The translations under genes and the position numbers were made by a program. Below are positions 2,929-18,204 of a stretch of 50,864 nt of DNA, piece by piece (position 1 is the stretch's first letter; each line of letters starts with the position of its first letter). The DNA is from Thermoguttaceae bacterium (GTDB lineage Bacteria > Planctomycetota > Planctomycetia > Pirellulales > Thermoguttaceae). The DNA lies in assembly GCA_039680305.1 (NCBI GenBank), contig JBDKTH010000436.1, positions 1 through 50,864 of the forward strand, read 5' to 3'. The notes beneath the pieces are model-generated. The model saw only the letters and a list, made by a program, of their open reading frames with translations. It ran no database searches and had not been told where the DNA came from.

Positions 2929-4914
2929 ATGATTTCTTGCTCGAACTCACAGCTTGTGCCCAGAAACGGCCACACGCTCATCGCCGCGATCGTTGCCCGA
3001 ATCAGCGGGTGTCCCAGCCAGAAGGAGCTCAGCCTCGCCGATCAAGTGGATCATGCCAAGGAGGAAATAGCCCAGTCGTATCAAGGGCCGATCGAGTACC
3101 GCGTGATCGCCACCAAAGGAAAAGGCGAACGCGTGGACCGGCCGGAGCTTGGGCAGGTGGAGCAGATGATCCGCAGCGGGGAACTGGACCTGCTCGTCAT
3201 GGAGGACGTGGGCCGGTTGGTCCGCGGCGCCGAGGCGGTGAAGCTGTGGGGAATTGCCGTGGATCACGGCGTTCGCTGCCTCGCCCCCAACGACTGCCTA
3301 GACAGCGCCGACGAGACGTGGGAAGAGGAGTTGATCACCGCCTGCCGAGACCATGTGGGGCACAACACTCACACCTCCAAGCGGCTCACAAAGAAGCTGA
3401 TGAATCGCTTCAAGAAGCTCGGCGGGGCGGTGGCCCTGCCGATCGCCGGATATATCAAACCGAAAGACGCCAAGACCTATCACGATTGGAGCAAGGACGA
3501 TTCCGCGACCGAGGAGGTCGCCCAAGGGCTGAGTATATTGAAGGCGACGCTAAACTGCTCTGTCGTGGCCGACTACTTCAACCAGAACGGGTACTCGACG
3601 GGGCCCTATTGCCGACGGAAACTGTGGAATGGCCCCATGGTTCGGCGGTACTACAAGAACCGGCTTCTCTCCGGCCATCCAGGCCGCGGATTCCGGCACA
3701 CCATCAAGCACCACGAGACGGGGCGCCGCGTATCCGTCAAGAACCCGAACGGCGATCCCACGTTCGTAGCATACCCTCACTTGGCCCACATCGACGCCGA
3801 GGAGCAGGACGAGGTCAACCGCATGCTCGATGCGAAGAACTCCCGTGTTCGGCGGAAGGCGGTGAACGGAGTCGATCCGCTCTGGCAGAAATCCCGGAAG
3901 CGGACCCGCTTCCCCGGGCAGCACGCCTGCTGCTGGTACTGCGGCGGGCACTACGTCTGGGGCGGCAACGGGATGACGGAGAACTTGATGTGCTCGGCCA
4001 GCCGGGATTGGCGTTGCTGGAACTCGGTCGGTTTCCACGGGCCGCTGGCAGTGGAACGCCTCGTGAACGTTATCACCAGCGAACTGTACGCGCTGCCCGG
4101 GTTTGAGGACCAGTTCCGCGAGTTGGTCCAGATTGCCCGACAGGACCGTTGCGGCGGTCAGGCCCAGCGGTGGCAGAAGCTCCGTAGCGATGAGGCGGTC
4201 CTCGCCCGGGAGCAGGCGAACTTCGCCGCCGCGATTGCTCAGTATGGCCCGCGTTCAGTGTTTCAGGAGAAGTTGCGGGAACTGGACGCACGCGAGAAGG
4301 AGTTGGCCCGGGAGCGGTCTGCGTTGGAGCGACTCGAAAAGCGGGAGCTCTGCTTGCCTCAATCCACAGTCGAGCTTCGGCAGATGCTCGAGGACCAGTT
4401 CCAAGGGCTGGCGGTTGATTCTCCCGAGTTCGGGGACCTTATGCGGCTGTTGGTGCCGGAGTTCCACGTGTACCTGGTGCGGCTCCTCGATGGCGGTCAC
4501 CCGCTGCCACGGGCCAAGGTCAAGTTGACCCTGGGGGGCATTGTCCCGGACAGCCAGCACGTGCCCGGCCTGGACGGTCTGTTGACCCGGGAGTTGACGC
4601 TGGACTTGTTCGAGCGGCCGCCACAACGGGAACGCATCCGCGAGGAGGCAGTTCGTCGAGCTGCCCAGGGGCTAACGCAGCGGCAGATCGTCGCCCAACT
4701 GGCAAAATGGCCCACCGCCGAAGAGGCCGAGCGGCCCAAGCTGCCGGTGGTCCAGCAGGCCTTGGCTCTTGACCGACTGATGAAAGGGCAAGGGCTTGAT
4801 AGCCCGTACGTGCTGTTACTGGAGCCGCCGGCGGATTATCCCAAGCTCCGCCGCCATAAGAACGCCAAGTACCGCTTTAAGCCACGCAACGGTTACGAGC
4901 GTCCGGTGATCTAA
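2929..4914 (+). CDS. Large serine recombinase
   Basis: GGGAGG RBS 8 nt upstream. Resolvase domain AAIVARISGCPSQKELSLADQ (catalytic Ser), recombinase domain, Cys-rich zinc ribbon CCWYCGGHYVWGG...MCSASRDWRCWN, then a coiled-coil. Confidence 0.9.
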   Translation: MISCSNSQLVPRNGHTLIAAIVARISGCPSQKELSLADQVDHAKEEIAQSYQGPIEYRVIATKGKGERVDRPELGQVEQMIRSGELDLLVMEDVGRLVRGAEAVKLWGIAVDHGVRCLAPNDCLDSADETWEEELITACRDHVGHNTHTSKRLTKKLMNRFKKLGGAVALPIAGYIKPKDAKTYHDWSKDDSATEEVAQGLSILKATLNCSVVADYFNQNGYSTGPYCRRKLWNGPMVRRYYKNRLLSGHPGRGFRHTIKHHETGRRVSVKNPNGDPTFVAYPHLAHIDAEEQDEVNRMLDAKNSRVRRKAVNGVDPLWQKSRKRTRFPGQHACCWYCGGHYVWGGNGMTENLMCSASRDWRCWNSVGFHGPLAVERLVNVITSELYALPGFEDQFRELVQIARQDRCGGQAQRWQKLRSDEAVLAREQANFAAAIAQYGPRSVFQEKLRELDAREKELARERSALERLEKRELCLPQSTVELRQMLEDQFQGLAVDSPEFGDLMRLLVPEFHVYLVRLLDGGHPLPRAKVKLTLGGIVPDSQHVPGLDGLLTRELTLDLFERPPQRERIREEAVRRAAQGLTQRQIVAQLAKWPTAEEAERPKLPVVQQALALDRLMKGQGLDSPYVLLLEPPADYPKLRRHKNAKYRFKPRNGYERPVI

Positions 4915-4949: not shown

Positions 4950-4979
4950 GCCCCCGGCAATTCGCCGGGGGCTTTTTTT
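4950..4979 (+). terminator. Rho-independent terminator after the serine recombinase
   Basis: GCCCCCGGC / GCCGGGGGC 9-bp stem, 5-nt loop, followed by T7. Confidence 0.75.
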
Positions 4980-5191: not shown

Positions 5192-5505
5192 CCTGCCCAG
5201 TTCACTGGAACGTTCGTTTCTCAGCAGGCCCCAGGCCCCCGTCCTCACTCGGCGGTCCTGAGGGCTTTTCATGTTGCGAGCGAGCCACGCCGTCTGTTGC
5301 GGTTGGGGAGTGGTGTGAGTGCGAGTTTTGTCTCGCCACGTGGTGCGGGACTGGCCTATGTTTCGTCCTGAAACCGGAGCAGTCTCTTTCCAGAGGTCGT
5401 TCTCATTGAAGACGCCCGAGAACTCTCCCCGACGCAACAGGTCTCCGCTCGCTTGGCTCGCCTTGAACCCATGCTTCGACCTTTCCTCGTTTTCTTGGAG
5501 GCTTT

Positions 5506-6078
5506 ATGAAACCAGTCGCTTTCCCCCGAATTCTTTTCGCGGCCCTCGTGGTGGTCGTGCTCGTCGGTTGCGACGAGAATGACCGCATCGTGCAAGTGGC
5601 CACGGAGGCCGCCGACCGCCAGGCGGAACAGAACCGCCAGATCGCCGATCAGAACCAGACACTCGCCGGGGCTACTCAAACGCTGATTGCGGCGGATGCC
5701 CAGGCCCGCCAGGAACTCATCGCGTTCCAAAAAGACCTCCAGGCCCAGCAGGCCGAGATTGGCCACCAGCGGGACCAGCTGGAGGCCGAACGCCGGCAGT
5801 TGGCCGACGCGCGGACCTGGGACTCGCAGGTGGCCCTGGCAGCGCGGAGCTTCGGTGTGCTGGCCGCGTGCCTGGTCCCGATCGTGCTGTGCTGGCAGAT
5901 GCTCCGCACAGTCCGACAGGGGAACGACGATCCGGTGCTTACCGAGGTGCTGATTACGGAGCTCACCGCGTCGCAATCGCCTTTGCTTTCCGGTGGCAGC
6001 AAGCCGCCTGCGATTCTCGACGAGCCACGACGCGTGCCTGAACTAACCCGGGACGGTACTTGGGACGGGGAAGGATGA
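5506..6078 (+). CDS. Lipoprotein with Q/A-rich coiled-coil and a C-terminal TM helix
   Basis: GGAGG RBS. Signal peptide with lipobox LVGC. Heptad-like QAEQNRQIADQNQTL...QAQQAEIGHQRDQLEAERRQL. Hydrophobic segment FGVLAACLVPIVLCW. Confidence 0.65.
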   Translation: MKPVAFPRILFAALVVVVLVGCDENDRIVQVATEAADRQAEQNRQIADQNQTLAGATQTLIAADAQARQELIAFQKDLQAQQAEIGHQRDQLEAERRQLADARTWDSQVALAARSFGVLAACLVPIVLCWQMLRTVRQGNDDPVLTEVLITELTASQSPLLSGGSKPPAILDEPRRVPELTRDGTWDGEG

Positions 6079-6202
6079 CCCTCCCCCTGGCACGGAGCTC
6101 GCCAATCATCCCTTTGCTGCGTTGGCAAAGGCCACGTCTCTTCGTCCGCCTCCCTCGCGGTCCTGTCTTCCACTTCCCTTCTTCCCAACCATGAGGAGAC
6201 TT

Positions 6203-6376
6203 ATGTCGAACCTGCTGCTCTTGGGCACGGTGCTCTCCCTGCTGGTGGCCGTTGCCGCCCTGGTCCGCGAGGTTCGTTTGCGGAGGGCCCTGGAACGCCT
6301 GCTTGCCCGCCTGATCTCCCACCTTCGCAAGCCCCCGCGTCACCGCGGTAATGCTTCGGACGATCAAGGGGGATGA
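6203..6376 (+). CDS. Small single-pass membrane protein (alternative start 6191)
   Basis: AGGAGA RBS. MSNLLLLGTVLSLLVAVAALV followed by an Arg-rich tail. Confidence 0.45.
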   Translation: MSNLLLLGTVLSLLVAVAALVREVRLRRALERLLARLISHLRKPPRHRGNASDDQGG

Positions 6377-6494
6377 CCTCGCAGGGCCTGCCCCCATCTC
6401 TTCCAACCCTTCGTAGTCCCGAGGCTATCCAAGCCCACAACAGGCAGGGGCTCGAATGCCGAAATGTCCTCACCACAATCCCCAAGGAGAAACG

Positions 6495-6866
6495 ATGTCG
6501 CACATTGTCACCGTCCAAACAGAAATCCGTGATGTGGCGGCCGTTCGGGCCGCCTGCCAACGGCTCGGACTGGCCCCACCAGTCCAGGGAGCCACCCGGC
6601 TCTTTAGCGGCGAAGCAAGCGGGCTTGCGGTCCAACTTCCCGGCTGGCAGTACGCGGTGGTCGCCAACCTCGCGACCGGCCAACTGACATTCGACAATTT
6701 TGGCGGCCGCTGGGGCGATTCCCGTCACCTCGACCAGTTCCAGCAAGCCTATGCCGTCGAGAAGGCCAAGATCGAGGCCCGTAGGCGGGGCCACACGGTC
6801 GCCGAGCAGCCACTTGCGAATGGCTCGATCAAGCTCACGATCCAGATCAGCGGAGGTGCCGCATGA
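6495..6866 (+). CDS. DUF1257 (Ycf35-like) protein
   Basis: AAGGAGA RBS. MSHIVTVQTEIRDVAAVRAACQRLGL...GWQYAVVANLATGQLTFDNFGGRWGD matches the DUF1257 pattern (MSHF..IKT.I.D...L..A...LG). Confidence 0.85.
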   Translation: MSHIVTVQTEIRDVAAVRAACQRLGLAPPVQGATRLFSGEASGLAVQLPGWQYAVVANLATGQLTFDNFGGRWGDSRHLDQFQQAYAVEKAKIEARRRGHTVAEQPLANGSIKLTIQISGGAA

Positions 6867-7057
6867 GCCGAATCATCGAAGTGATCATTGGTCCGAAAGG
6901 CGAAACGACGGTCCAGACCAAGGGTTTTGTCGGGGCAAGCTGCCGGGAGGCGAGCCGGTTTCTCGAACAAGCCCTAGGCCAACAGGCCGGCGAACAGTTG
7001 ACCGCCGAGTTCCATCAGTCGCAGGCGGTTAAACAGAGCCATCAGGAGCGACATTAA
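6863..7057 (+). CDS. DUF2997-like small protein
   Basis: ATGA overlap with the DUF1257 gene. MSRIIEVIIGPKGETTVQTKGFVGASCREASRFLEQALG matches the DUF2997 pattern. Confidence 0.8.
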   Translation: MSRIIEVIIGPKGETTVQTKGFVGASCREASRFLEQALGQQAGEQLTAEFHQSQAVKQSHQERH

Positions 7058-7136
7058 GCCTCATGTGGCTTGGTCAGCCTCGTGGAATCAGCCGACTTCT
7101 TCCGAGAGCTCACCTCCAAATGAAAGGAACCTGACT

Positions 7137-7568
7137 ATGATCGAGAAGAAACGATCCGGCGGTTTGGGTCGCCGAAAATGGATCTACGGGATCCTTGTCG
7201 CCTGTGTCCTTGCCCTGGCCTGCTTAAAGCCGGTGGCGATCGCCGCGATCTATGGCTACCAGCGGTACTTCTCTCCCTTTAAGGGCTATCACTGTGCCCA
7301 TGCAGCCCTCTACGGCGGCCTCTCGTGCTCCGAGTATGGCAAGCAGGCGATCCAGGCCAACGGCGTCCTGGGAGGCCTGATCTTGCTTGCGCAGCGGTTC
7401 GAGGCCTGCCACAACGCCGCCGTTGTGATCCGCCAAAGCCACTTTCTGGCGACAGAACCTCGCGTCGAAGAATGCTTGGAGAGTGATTGGCAACGTGGCA
7501 AGCGGGAAGGCCAGGAGGCCCGTGAGTACTGCACTGGCTGCCTCCAGGGATGCTGCTCTGACCAGTAG
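7137..7568 (+). CDS. Divergent YidD-like (haemolytic-domain) membrane protein with a Cys-rich tail
   Basis: N-terminal TM helix, then YQRYFSPFKGYHCAHAALYGGLSCSEYGKQAIQANGVLGG...RFEACH, resembling YidD Y-x-x-x-ISP...C...C-S-x-Y. C-terminus is CTGCLQGCCSDQ. Confidence 0.6.
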   Translation: MIEKKRSGGLGRRKWIYGILVACVLALACLKPVAIAAIYGYQRYFSPFKGYHCAHAALYGGLSCSEYGKQAIQANGVLGGLILLAQRFEACHNAAVVIRQSHFLATEPRVEECLESDWQRGKREGQEAREYCTGCLQGCCSDQ

Positions 7569-7676
7569 CCACCTCGTCTTGTCGCGCGTCGAGTCCTAGA
7601 AATGCTTGGCAACCGCCGGCTTCGCGTCCAACACCCTTTCCCCCAACCCATCACGTTTTTTGTGAGGAGTCCATCC

Positions 7677-9164
7677 ATGACACTGTCCGATCGTCTGCGC
7701 GAATACGTCGCCGCCTGTTTTTGCGGCCTTTGGATCGAGTCGCATGAGCACGCCGAGGCCCTGGCCGAGATCGCCGTGCTTTGCCGCGAGGAGCACTGGC
7801 GGCTGATCACGTGGGACATCGAGCGGGGCCTTCAGGTCCCTGGCGGCGACGTTCCGGCCGATGCCGGCAGCGGTGATCCTGTGGCGGCCATCCGTGCCGT
7901 CAATGCCCTGGCCAGCCCCGAAGGCTCGGCGCTTTTGGTCCTCCAGAACTTCCACCGCTTCTTGCAGTCGGCGGAGATCGTCCAGGCCTTGGCTCAACAG
8001 ATCGTCGCCGGAAAGCAGAACCGCACGTTCGTTCTCGTGCTCTCCCCCTCGGTGCAGATCCCCGTGGAACTGGAGCGGCTTTTCGTCGTCGTCACGCACG
8101 AATTGCCGGACCGCGGGCAGCTGGAAGAAATCGCCCGGGGCGTGGCCGTGGAGCCCGGGGAATTGCCACAGGGAGAGGAACTGCATCGACTCTTGGACGC
8201 CGCGGCGGGGCTCACGCGGCTGGAGGCGGAGAACGCCTTTGCCCTGAGCCTGGTGCGCCACCAGGTCCTCCGCCCCGAGGTCGTCTGGAAGCTCAAGGGC
8301 GAATCGCTCCAAAAAAGCGGCCTCTTGAGCCTCCAGCGTGGGCCGGAGACGTTTGCGGGGCTTGGTGGCCTGGAGGCCCTCAAGCAGTTCTGCCTTCGCG
8401 CCTTAGGACCGAAGGAGCCGAGCCGTCCTCGGCCCCGCGGGATCGTGCTTTTGGGACCTCCGGGGACGGGCAAGTCGGCGATCGCCAAGGCGCTGGGCAA
8501 CGAGACCGCGCGGCCCACCCTGATCCTCGATCCTGGAAGCCTGATGGGCTCCTTGGTTGGTCAAACCGAGGAGCGGACAAGGCAGGCCCTGCGGATCATC
8601 GACGCCTTCGGCCCGTGCATTGTGGTCATCGACGAGGTCGACCACGCCCTGGCCGGCCATCAGGCCAGTGGCGATTCCGGCGTGATGCGTCGATTCTTCG
8701 GCCAGATGCAGACCTGGCTTAATGACCACACCTCCGAGGCGTTCGTCGTCTGCACCTCGAACGACCTTCGCTCGCTTCCTAGCGCCTTTACGCGGGCCGA
8801 GCGATTCGACGGCGTGTGGTTTGTCGACTTCCCCGGCGCTAGCCAGAAGCGGACGATCTGGCGGCTCTATCTGGAGAAGTACGGGTTGGATCCCACCCAG
8901 CCCCGTCCGGTGGATGCGGACTGGAGCGGGGCGGAGATCAAGGCCTGCTGCCGCTTGGCGGCAATGCTTGACGTGCCCTTGCTGGAAGCGGCGCAGAACA
9001 TCGTTCCTGTGGCCAAGACGGCCAGCGAGTCGATCGCCGAGCTTCGGGAGTGGGCCTCCGGCCGCTGCCTCTCGGCCGACAAGCCCGGGATCTATGCCCG
9101 GACCGCGCATGCCGCGCCCGTAAAACTAGGCCGCAAGGTTCGCCGCGATCCGAGTACCAACTGA
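7677..9164 (+). CDS. Ycf46-type AAA+ ATPase
   Basis: GAGGAG RBS. Walker A GPPGTGKS, Walker B IVVIDEVD. Ycf46-like strings along the whole length: LVLQNFHRFL, IPVELERLF, GGLEALKQ, GDSGVMRRFFGQMQTWL, FVVCTSN, RAERFDGVWFVDFP, ELREWASGR. Confidence 0.9.
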   Translation: MTLSDRLREYVAACFCGLWIESHEHAEALAEIAVLCREEHWRLITWDIERGLQVPGGDVPADAGSGDPVAAIRAVNALASPEGSALLVLQNFHRFLQSAEIVQALAQQIVAGKQNRTFVLVLSPSVQIPVELERLFVVVTHELPDRGQLEEIARGVAVEPGELPQGEELHRLLDAAAGLTRLEAENAFALSLVRHQVLRPEVVWKLKGESLQKSGLLSLQRGPETFAGLGGLEALKQFCLRALGPKEPSRPRPRGIVLLGPPGTGKSAIAKALGNETARPTLILDPGSLMGSLVGQTEERTRQALRIIDAFGPCIVVIDEVDHALAGHQASGDSGVMRRFFGQMQTWLNDHTSEAFVVCTSNDLRSLPSAFTRAERFDGVWFVDFPGASQKRTIWRLYLEKYGLDPTQPRPVDADWSGAEIKACCRLAAMLDVPLLEAAQNIVPVAKTASESIAELREWASGRCLSADKPGIYARTAHAAPVKLGRKVRRDPSTN

Positions 9165-9184
9165 TCCAGGGCTCGTGTCCCTCG

Positions 9185-9233
9185 CCAGCGAGCGGAGGCT
9201 CCAGCCGTTTCCGCTCGCTGGCGTTTTTGTTTC
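9185..9233 (+). terminator. Rho-independent terminator after the AAA+ gene
   Basis: CCAGCGAGCGGA / TCCGCTCGCTGG 12-bp stem, followed by CGTTTTTGTTT. Confidence 0.75.
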
Positions 9234-9278
9234 GTGAATTGTGAATCCTAAACTCTCTTCCTTCATGGAGAAAGACGT

Positions 9279-10220
9279 ATGAGTACCTTGCTCGATGATC
9301 GTCGCCCGACAAGCGCCTCCTCGGCCCAGCGGCTGCGAGCGACGATGGCCGCGATGCGGCTTGCGTTCACTTGGTTTGGAACGCGGAAGTCGTTGACCCA
9401 GGAACAGAAGACTCAGGCGGCCGACACGTTCGGGGCCGAGGGAGCGTTCTTAAGCGCCGGCAAAAAGCTGGTCGACACGAAGCACCCGGCCTTTCGGGCG
9501 GTGACCACGGTCCGCAATCGGGCCCACGCCTATTTCAAGGGCGTCTCCTTGCCCTATCCCGAGCCGGGCATCCGGCTCGTGAAGCAAGACGAGATCGAAA
9601 CGATCAACGCCCAGATGATCGAGATCCGCGACGCGCTCGAAGAGGCTGTCGCGGGGCTCGACCGGCGTTATGGCGAGCTAAAGCGTGCCGCGTGTCAGCG
9701 TCTTGGCAGCCTCTATAGCGAAGAGGACTACCCGGCGACGCTTCGGGACCTCTTCGCCATAAGCTGGGATTTTCCCAGCCTGGAGGCCCCCGCGTATCTG
9801 GCCCAACTTAATCCTCAGCTCTACGAGGAGGAGTGCCGCCGGGTCCACGAGCGGTTCGACGAGGCCGTTCGGCTGGCCGAAGAGACGTTCACCAGCGAAC
9901 TGACCCGATTGGTCAGCCATCTAACCGAGCGGCTCTCGGGGCAGGAGGACGGCAAGCCCAAGATCTTTCGTGACTCGGCCGTCGAGAACCTCACCGAGTT
10001 CTTCGCCCGGTTCCGTCACCTGAACGTCCGTTCGAGCGAACAGCTCGACCGGTTGGTGGCCGACGCCCAGCGGATCATTCGCGGGATTGCACCGCAGGAG
10101 TTGCGAGACAACGCCAGCCTGCGTCAGCACGTCGCCACGGAGATGTCGCGGGTCGAAAGCGTGCTTGATGGCCTCTTGGTCGATCGGCCCCGGCGGAACA
10201 TCCTTCGTCGCCCCAGGTAA
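9279..10220 (+). CDS. Conserved hypothetical, tentatively DUF3150-like
   Basis: 313 aa, largely helical. LAFTWFGTRKSLTQEQ...LSAGKKLVDTKHPAFRAV...IRDALEEAV...FAISWDFPSL resembles what I recall of DUF3150 from ICE/plasmid backbones. Confidence 0.6.
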   Translation: MSTLLDDRRPTSASSAQRLRATMAAMRLAFTWFGTRKSLTQEQKTQAADTFGAEGAFLSAGKKLVDTKHPAFRAVTTVRNRAHAYFKGVSLPYPEPGIRLVKQDEIETINAQMIEIRDALEEAVAGLDRRYGELKRAACQRLGSLYSEEDYPATLRDLFAISWDFPSLEAPAYLAQLNPQLYEEECRRVHERFDEAVRLAEETFTSELTRLVSHLTERLSGQEDGKPKIFRDSAVENLTEFFARFRHLNVRSSEQLDRLVADAQRIIRGIAPQELRDNASLRQHVATEMSRVESVLDGLLVDRPRRNILRRPR

Positions 10221-10235: not shown

Positions 10236-10481
10236 ATGCAGCTAGTTGTCGAGCCACGCGGGGTGGTCCGGTGCCTCTACGAGGAAATGATCGAACTGCA
10301 GGCCCTGGGCAGCCCCGTTATTTCTCGTGCCTCCCAGGTCGAGCCGGACGAGCAGGGACGTTGGTGGGCCGACTTGGCCCCCGTGGGCGGTCCGGTGCTG
10401 GGGCCCTTTGATCGGCGTAGCGAGGCCCTCCTCGCCGAACGCCAGTGGCTTGAAGGGCACTGGATTGCCAAGCCGACGTGA
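10236..10481 (+). CDS. Small conserved hypothetical (81 aa)
   Basis: GAGGAGG RBS. VRCLYEEMIELQALGSPVISRASQVEPDEQGRWWADL resembles small proteins seen in integrative elements and plasmids. Confidence 0.6.
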   Translation: MQLVVEPRGVVRCLYEEMIELQALGSPVISRASQVEPDEQGRWWADLAPVGGPVLGPFDRRSEALLAERQWLEGHWIAKPT

Positions 10482-10643: not shown

Positions 10644-10841
10644 ATGCCCCAATCCGATCTGAACCGTGCCGTCGCCCGGGCCACCGGTGAATCCCTCGCG
10701 ATGATCGCCCGCATGGGCTTCGTTCCCCTGACGCCCTCGCCCGTCGAACGGGAGCCCCTCGTGGTCGACTGGGATGAGTTGGATTCTGGGCGCACAAGCT
10801 ATCTGCCCCAGCGCTTGCGCCGACGCCGAGCGTCCGCCTGA
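10644..10841 (+). CDS. Small hypothetical protein (65 aa)
   Basis: AGGAG RBS. MPQSDLNRAVARATGESLAMIARMGFVPL... with an Arg-rich C-terminus. Confidence 0.4.
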   Translation: MPQSDLNRAVARATGESLAMIARMGFVPLTPSPVEREPLVVDWDELDSGRTSYLPQRLRRRRASA

Positions 10842-11076: not shown

Positions 11077-11817
11077 ATGGAGATTTCCCTCATGATCCAT
11101 CGCGATCCCGTTCCACGTCGCCGGTTTGGGCCGTTTCTACGCGGCCTCCAGACCTTGAGGAACGCTTGGCGAAGCGAAGCCAACCCGATCGTCATCCCAC
11201 CCGAGCCACAACTTCTTGTTGTCGTGGAAGGAACGCACGACATCGAATTCTTGCGACGCATTAGCGTCATCGTCCATGCCGCCGAGCCGAGTCTGCCCGA
11301 CCTTGCCGACCTCGAGCGGCGAGGGAAGGTGCTGTTCGTCCCCTTCGGCGGCGGCGACTCCCTGTCCTGGACGCTCCGCTTGGCCGGGCTCAACCGCCGG
11401 GAGTTCCATCTCTACGACCGAGACGTGCCACCGGCAACGGAAGCCCGCCTACGGGCGGCGGCGTTGGTCAATGGCCGGCCTGGATGCCACGCCGTGGTGA
11501 CCAACAAGCGGAGCCTGGAAAACTACCTCGACTCGCGCGCCGTGTTCGAGGCCAGCGGCCTGGAGGTGGCCTTTTCCGATGACGACCACGTCGCGGACCT
11601 GGTCGCCCGTGCTGCCTATGCGCACCAGGTGCCGCCAATGCCTTGGGATGAACTGCCAGCGCGCAGTCGCAAACGGCGCCGCGACAAAGTCAAAAAGTGG
11701 CTCAACACGAAGGCCGTGGATCGGATGACGCCGGAGCGACTGCACCCGCGCGACCCGGACGGCGAGATTCGCTCCTGGCTTGAGAGGATCGCCACGCTAG
11801 CCAGCGGCGACATGTAG
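11077..11817 (+). CDS. Stand-alone TOPRIM protein of the OLD/DUF4435 type (alternative start 11092)
   Basis: LLVVVEGTHDIEFL (Toprim Glu), FVPFGGGD, HLYDRD (DxD), TNKRSLENYL (OLD/DUF4435-like ..IENYL). No ATPase domain in the ORF. Confidence 0.7.
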   Translation: MEISLMIHRDPVPRRRFGPFLRGLQTLRNAWRSEANPIVIPPEPQLLVVVEGTHDIEFLRRISVIVHAAEPSLPDLADLERRGKVLFVPFGGGDSLSWTLRLAGLNRREFHLYDRDVPPATEARLRAAALVNGRPGCHAVVTNKRSLENYLDSRAVFEASGLEVAFSDDDHVADLVARAAYAHQVPPMPWDELPARSRKRRRDKVKKWLNTKAVDRMTPERLHPRDPDGEIRSWLERIATLASGDM

Positions 11818-14214: not shown

Positions 14215-16914
14215 TCATTTTTCCCTGGGAATCTTGAGCGAGCAGCCCGCGTCCGCCACAGGCTTGACCAGAAACCCTTTGAAAACAACGACTCCATTAC
14301 CGGGATTCCGGAGGCCATCGATGATTGACATCGCAATCTGCTGCGGATTCGTAGTTCCCCAATAGTTGCCTTGGCAGTAATAGTCCTGTGGTGTTTTCAC
14401 CTCGATCACTGGCCCGCGATGGTTCACAAGGTTCGAACTCTTTACGACGACATGACCCTCGTAGAGGCTGGACTTGATGCCAATTGTATTGTTAGCAAGG
14501 AGACAGGACGTGAGCGTCACGCTGCCATAATACGCCAAGTTGATCCCGATGCCGCCGTTGTTGGCAATCGTGCAGTGGTCCAGTTCCACGTGGCTTAAAT
14601 GAAACGTGATCCCATCTGTGACGCTACTGGCGATCAGGCAGTTGTGAAACCGAATCAAGGGCTTGTTGTTTCGCTTCGTCTCGACACCCACCTTGTTCTG
14701 CAGAAACAGGCATTCCTTGATTTCAACCTCGACACCCTCGTCGATATGCAATCCGCGATTGGCCCCCCGCACGTCGAATCGTTCCAAGACCTGCTTGCTC
14801 TCGCGTTCCAAGGAGAGCTTGTCCCATCCACCCTGCGGTAATGCGGGGCGAAACCGCACGAATCCTTCTCCTTCCCCGTAGGAACTCAAGGGGCCGCGGG
14901 CCAGGATCGCCGCCCCGGGGGCGGCGAGGATCGTGGTGCCGCGTTCGATGGAGAGGGCCCCGTGGGACGTAATTGTGACACGTCCCATGAGTTTGTAGGG
15001 ACCGCCCTGGCGGGGAAGGCGAAGCTCCTGGTCGATCGTCTCAGGGATCACCTTGCCCGGCATCTTCGCAGGCGTGCGTTCCCGGCCCGTTGGGTCGGTA
15101 TCGGCGAGATGCCCTGGGGCCTTCTCGCGCTGGCCGGGGCCGCCGTCATCGTTGGGCATGCCGGGTTCTTCGCTTCCAGCGACGAACTCCGCCAGACGCT
15201 TCTCGACCCGTGTCTTCGTCAGGCCCGTTAGCCCGGGCAAGGCTTGGTCGTACCAGTAGCCGGCGCGCCGAAGGAGTCCCTTTCGGCTTTCTCCCCTCGC
15301 CCCTTGGCTCTGCTCCCACCAGGCATCGGCCAGCTTGACTTGGCCCTCCGAATCCTTCGGCGGCACTGACAATTCCTCCTCGGCGAGGGCCTTGAGGACC
15401 GGATCGCTCCCCTTGGCCAAATGGAAGAGGCCCTGTGGCCAGTTCCATTTGACCAAGCAGTACCAGCGGCCCAAGGCGAGATGGGCTGCCGCATCGGCAG
15501 TGCTCGTCTTCAAGGTGACCTGAGCCTCCTGGGCCTCCTCCCACTGCTCCAGAAGCTCTTGGACCTGCGCGCGACGGTCGTGAATCCGCTTGCGGTGGGA
15601 TCGGCCTTGGGGCTTTTGGCACAAGCGTTGGGCCGTGTTGAGAAGCTCCAGGGCCAACGCATACCGGTCCTCGGTCAGGGCAGAATCGACGACCCCGTCC
15701 ACGTTCTCCAAAAATGACGGAACCCGCGCCGGCTCGCTGCCGCTGGCAGCGAACCGGGTCAGAACCTTCTCTTTGACCGAGAGAACATCGACAGCAAAAT
15801 CGGCCCCGATCAGGTCGACCGCCTGGAGCATGAGTGCCGCATCGCCCCCTTCGCTGGCGAGTTCCATCGCCCGGCGCAAGAGGACGAACCGTTCGTCCAG
15901 GTGATCTTGGGAGATCTTGGCCCGCTTGACCAGTTCCCGAGTGAGGCGGCACTTCTCTTCACTCGAGTTCGCCTCGCTGAGCCGGTAGACTTCCTCCAAC
16001 TCCGCGAGGATCTTCGCTTGGATGTCCTCAGCGGGGAGCGGCGTCTTGTGGGGCGATCTTGCTGCTGGTGGTGGGTCTGGTTTTGGCTTCTTCATTCCCG
16101 CGACGCTTTGAGGCTCGCTTGCTGCCGGACTTGGCGGGGCGGTGGGAGCCGGCAGGGGTTTGGACGCTGCGTTTTTGACGGTGTGCTGGACCTGCGGGGA
16201 ACGGAGGGCTTGAGACTTGCTGGCCTCCGTCGTCGGTATCACCGGAGCCGTAGTCGGCGAGATGGCCTTCGGTTCTCGACGGGATTTAGGAGAGCGAGCC
16301 GGGGACGGTTCGGGATCGGACTGCAGGAGGACTGGGGAGACCAATCGAGTGGATTGCGGAGGGAAAGTTGGCTCATTCGAGCCAGCCTGGGCGACGGTCC
16401 TCGGCGAGGTTGGTCCGTGTGTGGAGTTCTGTAGCCAGACGAGACCGCCAGCCACAAGCAGAACGCCAGCGATGAGTATGTGAATCACAATCGCGGTGGG
16501 CTTGGAGTTGGCTCGCTTGCCCTCCAAAGACGTCCAAACGTCGCCAGGGCGGACGTCCAAGGGCGAGAAGTCGGCCAGATCCGGGCCCACATCGTTCCCG
16601 CTGCTTTGTCGTCGGGCAGGATCCTTGCCGACATCCCGATCGCGGCGGAGGATCGTATCGTAGGCGGCTTTCTTCTCCCCATTCAAGAGACAGATCCTGG
16701 CTGCTGCGACCTGATTCAGTAGCGTCTGCGACCATTCTGCATGGGGACCCGTTTGGAATGTCCGCAAATGGGCCATCTGCCGGTCGGCTGCCATCTCGAT
16801 GACAACGGGATCGTTTTCGAAAGGCTGGAGCCCCAACAGCCGGTAATGGTTGGGCGGCTGTTCATTGGGCGGGATGCCCAACCAACGGTGATAGGGATCA
16901 AAGGGTTGGTTCAT
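14215..16914 (-). CDS. J-domain-like membrane protein with Pro-rich linker and C-terminal parallel beta-helix repeats
   Basis: GAGGAGGAG RBS. N-terminus MNQPFDPYHRWLGIPP...HYRLLGL, TM helix AIVIHILIAGVLLVAGGLVWL, Pro/Ala/Ser-rich spacer. C-terminus has NNGGIGINLAYYGSVTLTSCLLANNTIGIKSS repeats. Confidence 0.85.
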   Translation of the reverse strand: MNQPFDPYHRWLGIPPNEQPPNHYRLLGLQPFENDPVVIEMAADRQMAHLRTFQTGPHAEWSQTLLNQVAAARICLLNGEKKAAYDTILRRDRDVGKDPARRQSSGNDVGPDLADFSPLDVRPGDVWTSLEGKRANSKPTAIVIHILIAGVLLVAGGLVWLQNSTHGPTSPRTVAQAGSNEPTFPPQSTRLVSPVLLQSDPEPSPARSPKSRREPKAISPTTAPVIPTTEASKSQALRSPQVQHTVKNAASKPLPAPTAPPSPAASEPQSVAGMKKPKPDPPPAARSPHKTPLPAEDIQAKILAELEEVYRLSEANSSEEKCRLTRELVKRAKISQDHLDERFVLLRRAMELASEGGDAALMLQAVDLIGADFAVDVLSVKEKVLTRFAASGSEPARVPSFLENVDGVVDSALTEDRYALALELLNTAQRLCQKPQGRSHRKRIHDRRAQVQELLEQWEEAQEAQVTLKTSTADAAAHLALGRWYCLVKWNWPQGLFHLAKGSDPVLKALAEEELSVPPKDSEGQVKLADAWWEQSQGARGESRKGLLRRAGYWYDQALPGLTGLTKTRVEKRLAEFVAGSEEPGMPNDDGGPGQREKAPGHLADTDPTGRERTPAKMPGKVIPETIDQELRLPRQGGPYKLMGRVTITSHGALSIERGTTILAAPGAAILARGPLSSYGEGEGFVRFRPALPQGGWDKLSLERESKQVLERFDVRGANRGLHIDEGVEVEIKECLFLQNKVGVETKRNNKPLIRFHNCLIASSVTDGITFHLSHVELDHCTIANNGGIGINLAYYGSVTLTSCLLANNTIGIKSSLYEGHVVVKSSNLVNHRGPVIEVKTPQDYYCQGNYWGTTNPQQIAMSIIDGLRNPGNGVVVFKGFLVKPVADAGCSLKIPREK

Positions 16915-17547: not shown

Positions 17548-18204
17548 CTAGAACTGCATCGTTTCGATAACATAGTAAGCCCTGACCCGGGCAAACTCGC
17601 CGGCAGAAAGCTCGCGCTTTCCCGAGCTATCCGACAAGCTTGGCCAGGGATCGCGGACCATCACCCGCTGGATTTGCGGGCCCCGTTCGGTCATCTCGTA
17701 GATGACGGCGGTTACGACGACGGCGTGGCCCACCTCACCCTCGGGGTTCTCGTAGCCAACAATCACCGGCGTGCCGGTCTCCAATTGCCGCTTGAGAATC
17801 GCAAACGGGGGAGGGCCAAGGCCGACGGTCCCGGCGACCTGGAGCCGTTGCCCCTGGCCGTTCAGCGTCCAGCCGTTGAGGCTGGCCAGGATCTCCTCGG
17901 GAGAGCCGGGACGGTCGACGATCCGGCCAAAGGCGTTCTGGACGATTTCCTCTTGGCTGACCGCGATCCCCTTGGCCGACAGCGCCATCTGGATGCTGGC
18001 GGCCCAGCACCAGTTAGACTCTTGCTGCTGAGCCGCGTGGTAGTTCATCTTGGCCGTCTTAAGTCCCACGACTCCCACCCGTGTCGCAGGCCCCGACTCC
18101 CCGGCAGGTCTCTGGCAGCCCTCACACAGGCAGGCGAGAAGGACCAATGGAAGAAGGAGCATCTTCCAGGATCGGTACGCCCAAATCGCTTGCGTCATGT
18201 CCAT
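17548..18204 (-). CDS. Secreted papain-fold cysteine peptidase (C39-like)
   Basis: Signal/lipobox LLACLCEGC. Candidate catalytic Cys in QQESNWCWAASIQMAL and His in GEVGHAVVVTAV. Confidence 0.65.
   Translation of the reverse strand: MDMTQAIWAYRSWKMLLLPLVLLACLCEGCQRPAGESGPATRVGVVGLKTAKMNYHAAQQQESNWCWAASIQMALSAKGIAVSQEEIVQNAFGRIVDRPGSPEEILASLNGWTLNGQGQRLQVAGTVGLGPPPFAILKRQLETGTPVIVGYENPEGEVGHAVVVTAVIYEMTERGPQIQRVMVRDPWPSLSDSSGKRELSAGEFARVRAYYVIETMQF

Follow-up and report, generated by a model that had tools for sequence, protein, structure and literature searches.

A five-gene AAA+ ATPase cassette of mobile elements on a recombinase island in Thermoguttaceae

What does an AAA+ ATPase resembling the Ycf46 proteins of cyanobacteria and plastids do on an integrated island of a planctomycete, and which of its neighbours belong with it? 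The question is raised by a run of genes on contig JBDKTH010000436.1 of a Thermoguttaceae bacterium (assembly GCA_039680305.1), a stretch of 50,864 nucleotides referred to here as the window. A preliminary description had grouped six genes of this stretch, ending at position 9233, into one unit: a lipoprotein, a 57-amino-acid (aa) membrane protein, DUF1257, DUF2997, a YidD-like protein and the ATPase. Comparison with related genomes, viruses and plasmids redraws that unit. The conserved set consists not of these six genes but of five, encoding DUF1257, DUF2997, the ATPase, a DUF3150-like protein and an 81-aa protein, the last two lying outside the coordinates first given. It is very well supported that the window holds one Planctomycete copy, with envelope add-ons, of this five-gene mobile-element cassette.

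Extent and distribution of the cassette

The six open reading frames (ORFs) first described at 5506-9164 all exist on the plus strand and agree with independent gene calls on a public contig. The core cassette runs further, with every gene on the plus strand. It comprises a DUF1257/Ycf35-like protein of 123 aa (6495-6866), a 64-aa DUF2997 protein (6863-7057), the 495-aa AAA+ ATPase (7677-9164), a 313-aa divergent DUF3150-family protein (9279-10220) and an 81-aa protein with an RRASHVEP motif (10236-10481; possibly 64 aa from 10287). The DUF1257 stop and DUF2997 start overlap in ATGA, as the preliminary description had claimed, and the two genes are translationally coupled. Motifs of the GGAGG, AAGGAG or GAGGAG type lie 5-10 nucleotides 5' of five of the six starts originally listed; a Shine-Dalgarno-like site had been proposed for every gene, and this holds except for the YidD gene, where the motif is weak.

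A genome scan with one genome per species returned 71 loci bearing ATPase relatives 56-81% identical to the window protein, nearly all annotated as Planctomycetota. Window proteins were mapped onto these related loci, and all ORFs were then clustered. DUF1257 and DUF2997 are present in 35 of the 42 loci that have at least 2.5 kb of upstream sequence. Among the 35 loci with at least 8 kb of downstream sequence, the 313-aa gene, the most conserved of the cassette, occurs in 29 and the 81-aa gene in 28. The co-occurrence of the core genes is far beyond chance.

Two intrinsic terminators had been placed around the six genes, and both are present as the two top-scoring terminator-like sites in the first 14 kb. 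One follows the recombinase gene (4950-4979, plus strand), with an all-GC stem of 9 bp (4950-4972) and a run of seven T residues; the other follows the ATPase gene (9183-9233, plus strand), with a 17-bp stem (9183-9223) and a T-rich tail. A GC-rich hairpin with a T-rich tail also stands 3' of the ATPase stop in 25 of 62 related loci, a count that depends on the analyst's own threshold, and the stem sequences differ. The ATPase and 313-aa genes are spaced by anything from 39 bp to 5.5 kb (9165-9278 in the window), which makes this junction an insertion hotspot. At one locus (L090), opposite-strand sulfatase and polysaccharide-lyase genes are interleaved between intact cassette genes. Given the variable gap and the hairpin after the ATPase gene, the cassette forms two transcription units, separated by the terminator and with the hotspot between them. 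The same split explains why the unit was at first closed at 9233; biologically it runs on past that point through the following two genes, which are part of the conserved cassette.

Related genomes also show the cassette to be mobile material in its own right. At least 11 genomes hold two to four copies each, and repeats of an 8.2-kb unit within a single genome are 91-95% identical in nucleotide sequence. In several copies the ATPase gene is truncated or split, and many copies lie on short contigs. The cassette had been described as cargo, packaged behind recombination genes. That status does not fit, since the element, like many phages, has the cassette itself as its conserved backbone, and some copies are 8.2-kb repeats that are recombinase-free inside the repeated stretch.

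Downstream of the core, related islands bear one of two gene sets, neither of which is found in the window. The first (L028, 15857-17275; L089, 14417-17321) encodes a beta sliding clamp relative of about 470 aa (PDB 7rzm, E 8e-9), a 175-aa protein and a Cas4-like PD-(D/E)xK exonuclease (PF12705, E 1.8e-32; phrog_69), and these replication and recombination genes point to a replicative element. The second (L001, 15423-18138; L016, 13110-16034; L092, 11122-13933) is a four-gene ubiquitin-like conjugation operon placed right after the cassette. Its products are a beta-grasp ubiquitin-like protein (Ubl; about 100 aa), an E2-like protein (about 370 aa) whose tail is cysteine-rich and zinc-ribbon-like, a JAB peptidase (HTHPG...S..D) and a ThiF/E1 protein. 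This operon resembles Bil/PRTRC-type systems and adjoins a Cdc48-like AAA+ protein.

Viruses carry the same genes. A single-protein scan of IMG/VR gave no match, and a six-sequence alignment recovered 106 contigs. In the best 80 of these loci, DUF1257 and DUF2997 are each found in 75, the DUF3150-like gene in 61 and the 81-aa gene in 44, arranged in two gene orders. Several of the viral contigs are 198-205 kb long, and one has a terminase large subunit gene 4.4 kb from the cassette. On a 205-kb viral contig of jumbo-phage type (L110; 5120-5608, 7550-7945), the cassette lies near a terminase large subunit gene and a gene for a protein with a dATP/dGTP diphosphohydrolase N-domain (PF18909), and a GNAT acetyltransferase gene is inserted between DUF2997 and the ATPase.

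Among named phages, 35 records hold ATPase homologues that cover at least 80% of the query. The ATPase has a full-length match to phrog_8638 (residues 5-483, E 6.7e-78), whose function PHROGs lists as unknown, and in the phrog_8638 phages SM1, RHph_I4, RcTiptonus and Tunturi_3 the ATPase is followed by the same small partners. In Rhizobium phage RHph_I4 the ATPase (gp084), a 212-aa gene, DUF1257 and DUF2997 stand in this order at the start of the replication module, ahead of genes for an initiator, DnaB and Pol I. Pseudomonas phage SM1 (ATPase gp026) has ATPase, DUF1257, DUF2997 and an 81-aa-like gene, then DnaB, while Tunturiibacter phage Tunturi_3 has ATPase, DUF2997, an 81-aa-like gene and a DUF3150-like gene. 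Unlike the window, several phages thus place the ATPase first and the partners after it. In the ATPase neighbourhoods of mycobacteriophage Corndog (ATPase gp96) and the Streptococcus satellite Javan368, no DUF1257 or DUF2997 was detectable. Corndog gp96 is found only in infected cells and not in virions (PMC4351075).

Plasmids complete the distribution. Full-length ATPase homologues occur on plasmids of Nitrospirota, Aquificota, Actinomycetota, Cyanobacteriota, Bacillota and Spirochaetota. Partners adjoin the ATPase in all but a Treponema plasmid, and a Manganitrophus plasmid has all five cassette genes. The above-chance co-occurrence and the enrichment in phages and plasmids predicted for the gene set are thus borne out in genome, viral and plasmid loci alike. 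Several plasmid copies have further neighbours. Fer4_12/radical-SAM proteins of about 200 aa adjoin the ATPase on Paenibacillus, Rhodococcus and Treponema plasmids (L085, 10275-10856; L083, 7381-7989; L084, 7333-7941), in two of these three together with the ATPase's partners; the Treponema ATPase lies within a contractile-injection-system gene cluster. Genes for DsbA or thioredoxin-fold proteins adjoin the ATPase in Paenibacillus and Thermovibrio, and Hsp70/GrpE genes do so in Pseudanabaena.

The motor and its partner proteins

The cassette is built around a classical AAA+ motor with dedicated partners. The ATPase consists of a family-specific N-domain of about 245 aa and one classical-clade AAA module, and its assignment to the AAA family is secure (PF00004, E 1.4e-24). 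Walker A (GPPGTGKS), pore loop 1 (L-V-G), Walker B (IDEVD), sensor 1 (N362) and the arginine fingers (R373/R376) are intact. The pore loop of the p97 D1 ring, for comparison, reads L-A-G. A cross-phylum alignment of 18 divergent homologues, from Planctomycetes to mycobacteriophages, shows G263/K266, Gly295 of the pore loop, N362, R373 and R376 to be invariant and D319/E320 nearly so. The protein thus has the Walker motifs, sensor 1 and second region of homology with two arginine fingers that define the classical clade, and its intact motifs predict a catalytically competent enzyme. The family is large, with 3,357 clusters at 50% identity matching at E <= 1e-30.

The best solved-structure matches are the classical unfoldases and segregases, with AFG2/SPATA5, NVL, Cdc48/p97 and VAT at the top and E values of 5e-36 to 1e-30 across Cdc48/p97, VAT, AFG2/SPATA5, FtsH and PAN. 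With these proteins the ATPase shares Walker A and B, the pore loop, sensor 1 and the two arginines of the second region of homology. Unlike them, it is similar only within the AAA module (residues ~250-433) and has a single such module, no protease domain and no transmembrane (TM) segment that could serve as an anchor. Its N-domain is conserved throughout the family and has no detectable relative outside it. The ATPase also scores far below every NCBIfam family cut-off.

DUF2997 is the most clearly identified partner. It matches PF11211 over model positions 1-47 of 47 with 61.5 bits against a gathering threshold of 24.1 (E 6.9e-17), in agreement with the original assignment. An alignment of 15 genome, plasmid and phage homologues shows three invariant residues, G13, G24 and C27, the last being the only cysteine. 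The DUF1257 assignment stands on indirect grounds. A direct Pfam match falls below the cut-off, with 18.4 bits against 22.2 for PF06868 (E 0.0027) and coverage of the C-terminal half only. The identity is secured through relatives, however, as some homologues 70-74% identical bear a precomputed PF06868 match, and profile searches reach phage and plasmid proteins annotated as DUF1257. More than 6,500 homologues of this protein were found. Its AlphaFold model has a predicted local distance difference test (pLDDT) score of 90 and the topology b-a-b-b-b-b-a-b-b. At one locus (L091), DUF1257 and DUF2997 are naturally fused.

The 313-aa protein has more than 6,300 homologues, with 66-88% identity among the 120 best matches listed. 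A direct comparison with PF11348 gave no DUF3150 match even at E <= 1, and its membership of the family is therefore a transitive one. The homologue on the Manganitrophus plasmid, reached by profile at E 3e-19 and 9e-36, matches PF11348 at E 1.9e-9, and tblastn aligns the window protein with annotated DUF3150 proteins of Burkholderiales plasmids at 22-27% identity over ~85% of the length (E 1e-8 to 1e-11). On these two grounds it is regarded as a divergent DUF3150 protein. Phage Tunturi_3 gp96 also matches the DUF3150-like profile (E 1.7e-50). The AlphaFold model has long helices and a pLDDT of 73.5.

DUF3150 proteins also keep company with another kind of ATPase. On Cupriavidus plasmids the order is ATP-binding protein, DUF3150, VWA-like protein, next to genes of PRTRC (ParB-related, ThiF-related cassette), so that DUF3150 follows an ATPase gene as it does in the window. 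The ATP-binding protein, annotated only as such, is presumably a candidate MoxR/CobS-like ATPase. At this Burkholderiales locus DUF1257 and DUF2997 are neither annotated nor detected. The likeness to PRTRC extends to related Planctomycete islands, which bear Ubl, E2-like, JAB and ThiF genes as well; the window has no Ubl, E1, E2 or JAB gene. That DUF3150 is found with a different AAA+ type suggests that it is a client or adaptor of AAA+ motors, and that it is the constant functional partner while the motor is exchangeable.

The 81-aa protein is matched at E 3e-28 on the Manganitrophus plasmid and has further homologues in phages Tunturi_3 and SM1, and a search of PDB gave no significant match (best E 0.016). 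When cluster profiles were compared by hhalign with the neighbours of phage ATPases, the only pair recovered was the 81-aa protein with SM1 gp031, at 69% probability. Homology of SM1 gp028 and of Corndog gp95 and gp94 to cassette proteins is for that reason not claimed.

None of the four partner proteins has a solved structural relative. Searches of NCBIfam and PHROGs with the core partners gave no matches, and the literature searched holds passing mentions of DUF2997, DUF1257 and DUF3150 only, without a function or mechanism for any of them; nor does it describe the phage and plasmid cassette. The earlier statement that no component has a known mechanism is thus upheld, no partner having a solved or characterised relative. 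At the same time each partner has more than 6,000 detectable homologues, and the cassette is a fixed part of large phages, jumbo phages among them, and of plasmids from many phyla.

Relation to Ycf46 and possible function

The likeness to Ycf46 was part of the first reading of the ATPase, and it is best treated as a well-motivated label. It rests on AAA proteins of cyanobacterial plasmids, which align with the window ATPase over 92-98% of its length at 28-32% identity and adjoin DUF1257 and DUF2997, and on the generic JGI label "SpoVK/Ycf46/Vps4" on members of the ATPase cluster. Cluster look-ups of Ycf46 relatives returned no informative names. Association with Ycf35 (DUF1257) and DUF2997, a mark of Ycf46, is seen in the window, at most genome loci (35 of 42) and viral loci (75 of 80) and on plasmids including cyanobacterial ones. 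The window core and the cyanobacterial and plastid systems (Ycf46, Ycf35, duf2997-ycf35-fed7) share the same three protein families, and in both the ATPase is about 500 aa long with an N-domain and one AAA module.

Published work gives these relatives a cellular setting. The cyanobacterial duf2997-ycf35-fed7 cluster places DUF2997 next to DUF1257 (PMC4284462), and in red-algal plastids the loss of ycf35 and that of ycf46 tend to go together (PMC5940233). Ycf46 has been described as a KaiC-interacting ATPase encoded in a stress-induced three-gene operon and linked to CO2 use, and in cyanobacteria and plastids Ycf46 and Ycf35 are chromosomal or plastid genes tied to CO2 use, KaiC and stress checkpoints (bioRxiv 10.1101/2025.07.21.665879). 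The window cassette family differs in lying on a recombinase island, in being multi-copy and in being joined to the DUF3150-like and 81-aa genes. A tentative reading, placed a little below an even chance, is that the five-gene set is an undescribed, ancient and very widespread mobile-element machine, of which ycf46 and ycf35, with DUF2997, are domesticated cellular descendants. If so, a function solved in a tractable phage would explain both. The cassette would also tie a mobile-element module to ycf46 and ycf35, genes unexplained since the first plastid genomes. Cultivable systems for a direct test exist in phages SM1, RHph_I4, Tunturi_3 and Corndog and in Paenibacillus or Bacillus megaplasmids. 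For Planctomycete genomics, the cassette defines a multi-copy element family with an insertion hotspot between the AAA and DUF3150 genes.

As to function, the reading proposed here, held at roughly even confidence, is a protein-remodelling machine that mobile elements deploy inside the cell during their establishment or replication. The ATPase would act as a hexameric motor that threads substrates or remodels complexes. The DUF1257-DUF2997 pair may dock on the N-domain of the ATPase as an adaptor or regulator, and the DUF3150-like and 81-aa proteins may form a co-functioning client or effector sub-complex. The machine would work in the cytoplasm rather than in the particle, as the phage, plasmid or island establishes itself or replicates, and its target would be a conserved protein complex of the host or the element. 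The role in establishment or replication is proposed because the cassette lies beside replication genes, is absent from virions and is present on plasmids and islands.

Several observations weigh against this remodelling model. Foldseek comparison of the DUF1257 model with PDB and BFVD returned nothing better than E 0.2, the DUF3150-like model likewise had no match better than E 0.2 in the databases searched, and profile searches of PDB sequences gave nothing significant for DUF1257 or DUF2997 and came back empty for the DUF3150-like protein. As the partners have neither a fold nor a PDB profile match, the terms "adaptor" and "client" are guesses. The interleaved metabolic genes at L090 are as compatible with a function domesticated by the cell as with a mobile one. 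Integrated elements can be mis-called as viral in IMG/VR, and L092 looks like a Planctomycete island. Finally, some contexts (L003, L089) resemble defence islands.

This last point leads to an alternative in which mobile elements would carry the cassette for defence against, or exclusion of, phages or plasmids, with the AAA+ protein as sensor or motor and the small proteins, joined in some copies by a Toprim-like protein, as effectors. A type I CRISPR-Cas system stands beside the L003 copy, an MmeI-like methylase and a NERD-kinase stand beside the L089 copy, and on a Geminocystis plasmid a gene pair for an ATP-binding protein and RloB lies beside the partners. Related islands often carry the Ubl, E2-like, JAB and ThiF operon, which resembles antiviral Bil/PRTRC-type systems. 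The AAA module itself weakly matches defence models, namely IetA (E 2e-15) and TRIP13 in PADLOC and IteA (E 1.3e-11) in NCBIfam. These matches, however, cover the generic AAA module only (residues 255-428 for IetA and IteA) and fall far below the family cut-offs, IteA scoring 44 bits against 510; the cassette also lacks the IetS-like protease partner of IetAS. A search of PADLOC-DB v2 (5,027 models) gave no significant match for any partner and did not place the cassette in a known defence system. Against defence there is also the stable presence of the cassette in large phages, at the head of replication modules, and its occurrence in up to four near-identical copies per genome. Being a stable component of large phages and being kept in near-identical multiple copies are both unusual for defence systems. 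Relatives are, moreover, kept in cyanobacteria and plastids (PMC4284462, PMC5940233). A defence or exclusion role is accordingly not favoured and on balance unlikely.

A second alternative takes the ATPase and its partners as a thiol- or iron-sulfur (Fe-S)-linked activase or maturase, in which ATP would power the loading, repair or release of a redox or Fe-S cofactor protein and the DUF2997 cysteine would take part in the chemistry. This reading draws on the arrangement in Cupriavidus, where DUF3150 sits between an ATP-binding and a VWA-like protein. That layout resembles the MoxR/VWA pairs of cofactor-inserting activases such as CbbQO, NorQD and CobST. It also draws on the invariance of the single DUF2997 cysteine in the 15-sequence alignment, on the cysteine-rich tail of the YidD paralogue in the window, on the Fer4_12/radical-SAM and DsbA/thioredoxin-fold neighbours in unrelated lineages and on the ferredoxin Fed7 in the cyanobacterial duf2997-ycf35-fed7 cluster (PMC4284462). 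Such Fe-S and thiol neighbours are, however, absent from most Planctomycete and viral copies, and one conserved cysteine is thin evidence. The AAA module also belongs to the classical clade, whose members usually work as unfoldases and not as chelatase-type motors. Overall, an activase function seems improbable.

Accessory genes and the surrounding island

The remaining genes of the original six are accessory. The 190-aa lipoprotein (5506-6078, plus strand) has a signal peptide, the lipobox LVGC, a Q/A/E-rich, coiled-coil-like middle and a C-terminal hydrophobic helix. It had been described as a lipoprotein with a C-terminal TM helix, and the lipobox, together with a hydrophobic C-terminal segment in most homologues, agrees with this. 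Searches of Pfam, NCBIfam and PHROGs returned no family match for it, and PADLOC only a marginal one (PbeC, E 0.004). Homologues stand directly upstream of DUF1257 in 20 of 75 loci, with the lipobox conserved in 14 of the 20, and in only 1 of 80 viral loci. The 57-aa single-pass membrane protein (6203-6376, plus strand; also a gene call) has no Pfam family match. It has weak homologues in a few related loci, and a cluster of small ORFs occupies the equivalent position in nine.

The third accessory gene encodes a 143-aa YidD-like protein (7137-7568, plus strand) with an N-terminal TM helix, a YidD domain and a cysteine-rich tail. Its identification as a divergent YidD is confirmed by two curated models, PF01809 (E 1.6e-10, 41 bits against 27) and TIGR00278 (71 bits against 40). 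Housekeeping YidD, the membrane protein insertion efficiency factor, is a protein of ~70-85 aa encoded in an rnpA-yidD-yidC context. The window protein departs from this pattern in its length, in the added N-terminal TM helix and cysteine-rich tail, and in its location on a mobile island. A YidD paralogue occurs in only four related loci, at three different positions of the cassette. The lipoprotein, the small TM protein and YidD are thus lineage-specific, facultative add-ons.

This pattern bears on the membrane-associated machine first proposed for the locus, a soluble AAA+ unfoldase working with three envelope-targeted partners in membrane-protein quality control or envelope remodelling, and makes it very improbable. 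The envelope genes are dispensable: the lipoprotein is found in 20 of 75 loci, the TM protein in nine and YidD in four, and about three in four Planctomycete copies, like almost every phage and plasmid copy, lack them while the other five genes stay together. YidD also shifts position within the cassette, and the ATPase has no membrane segment or protease domain. In favour of the machine, all three genes lie in the window between the same two terminators as the ATPase, the lipoprotein recurs directly 5' of DUF1257 with its lipobox conserved, and YidD paralogues recur in the four loci.

Two companions lie downstream of the core. A 65-aa protein (10644-10841, plus strand; also a gene call) belongs to cluster C15, found downstream of the 81-aa gene in 32 loci, and is thus a frequent companion. 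A 246-aa protein (11077-11817, plus strand) is a facultative one. Eleven loci have a homologue of it, whose place varies: mostly it lies between DUF2997 and the ATPase gene, but also upstream of DUF1257. Its invariant motifs are E51-G52..D55 and D114-R115-E116. A Toprim identity had been read by eye from these motifs (EG..D, D-R-E); it was downgraded, as the protein has no Pfam or PDB match, and 1 of the 11 homologues matches DUF3226 at E 0.035, which does not place the protein among Toprim/OLD-type families.

The mobile-element setting of the locus is well founded. Immediately upstream of the cassette lie, all on the plus strand, genes for a 63-aa HTH_17 (excisionase/AlpA-like) DNA-binding protein (1140-1331; PF12728 gene call on the public contig), a tyrosine recombinase/integrase (1427-2713, ORF open from 1379; PF00589 E 4.5e-11, PF13102 E 9e-9; also a gene call) and a large serine recombinase (2929-4914, ORF open from 2887). 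The HTH_17 protein marks the left part of the integrated island. The serine recombinase matches PF00239 at E 6.8e-5, with 23.4 bits against a Pfam cut-off of 23.3, and PF07508 below the cut-off (E 0.0066). The closest relative (L001) has the same arrangement, with a serine recombinase copy 88% identical in the same position, and related recombinases lie upstream of the cassette in seven loci.

On the other side, the window from ~20 kb on is ordinary chromosome, with genes for molybdenum cofactor synthesis, cytochromes and a hybrid kinase. The right end of the island is only bracketed, between ~13.7 kb and these housekeeping genes; att-like direct repeats, tRNA and tmRNA genes and Rfam families were sought at the island ends, and none was found. 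Between the island and the housekeeping genes, on the minus strand, are genes for an 899-aa right-handed beta-helix (NosD-like) protein (14215-16914) and a C39/C70-type papain-like peptidase (17548-18204). Compared with the public JGI contig Ga0498941_000972 (L172), the window shows 39 substitutions; 30 fall within the first 5.4 kb, most of these in the gene for the serine recombinase. There is also a 43-bp deletion at 5449-5462 between TCGCTTGGC(A/T)CGCC direct repeats, just 5' of the lipoprotein gene. The recombinase part of the island thus seems to vary between strains.

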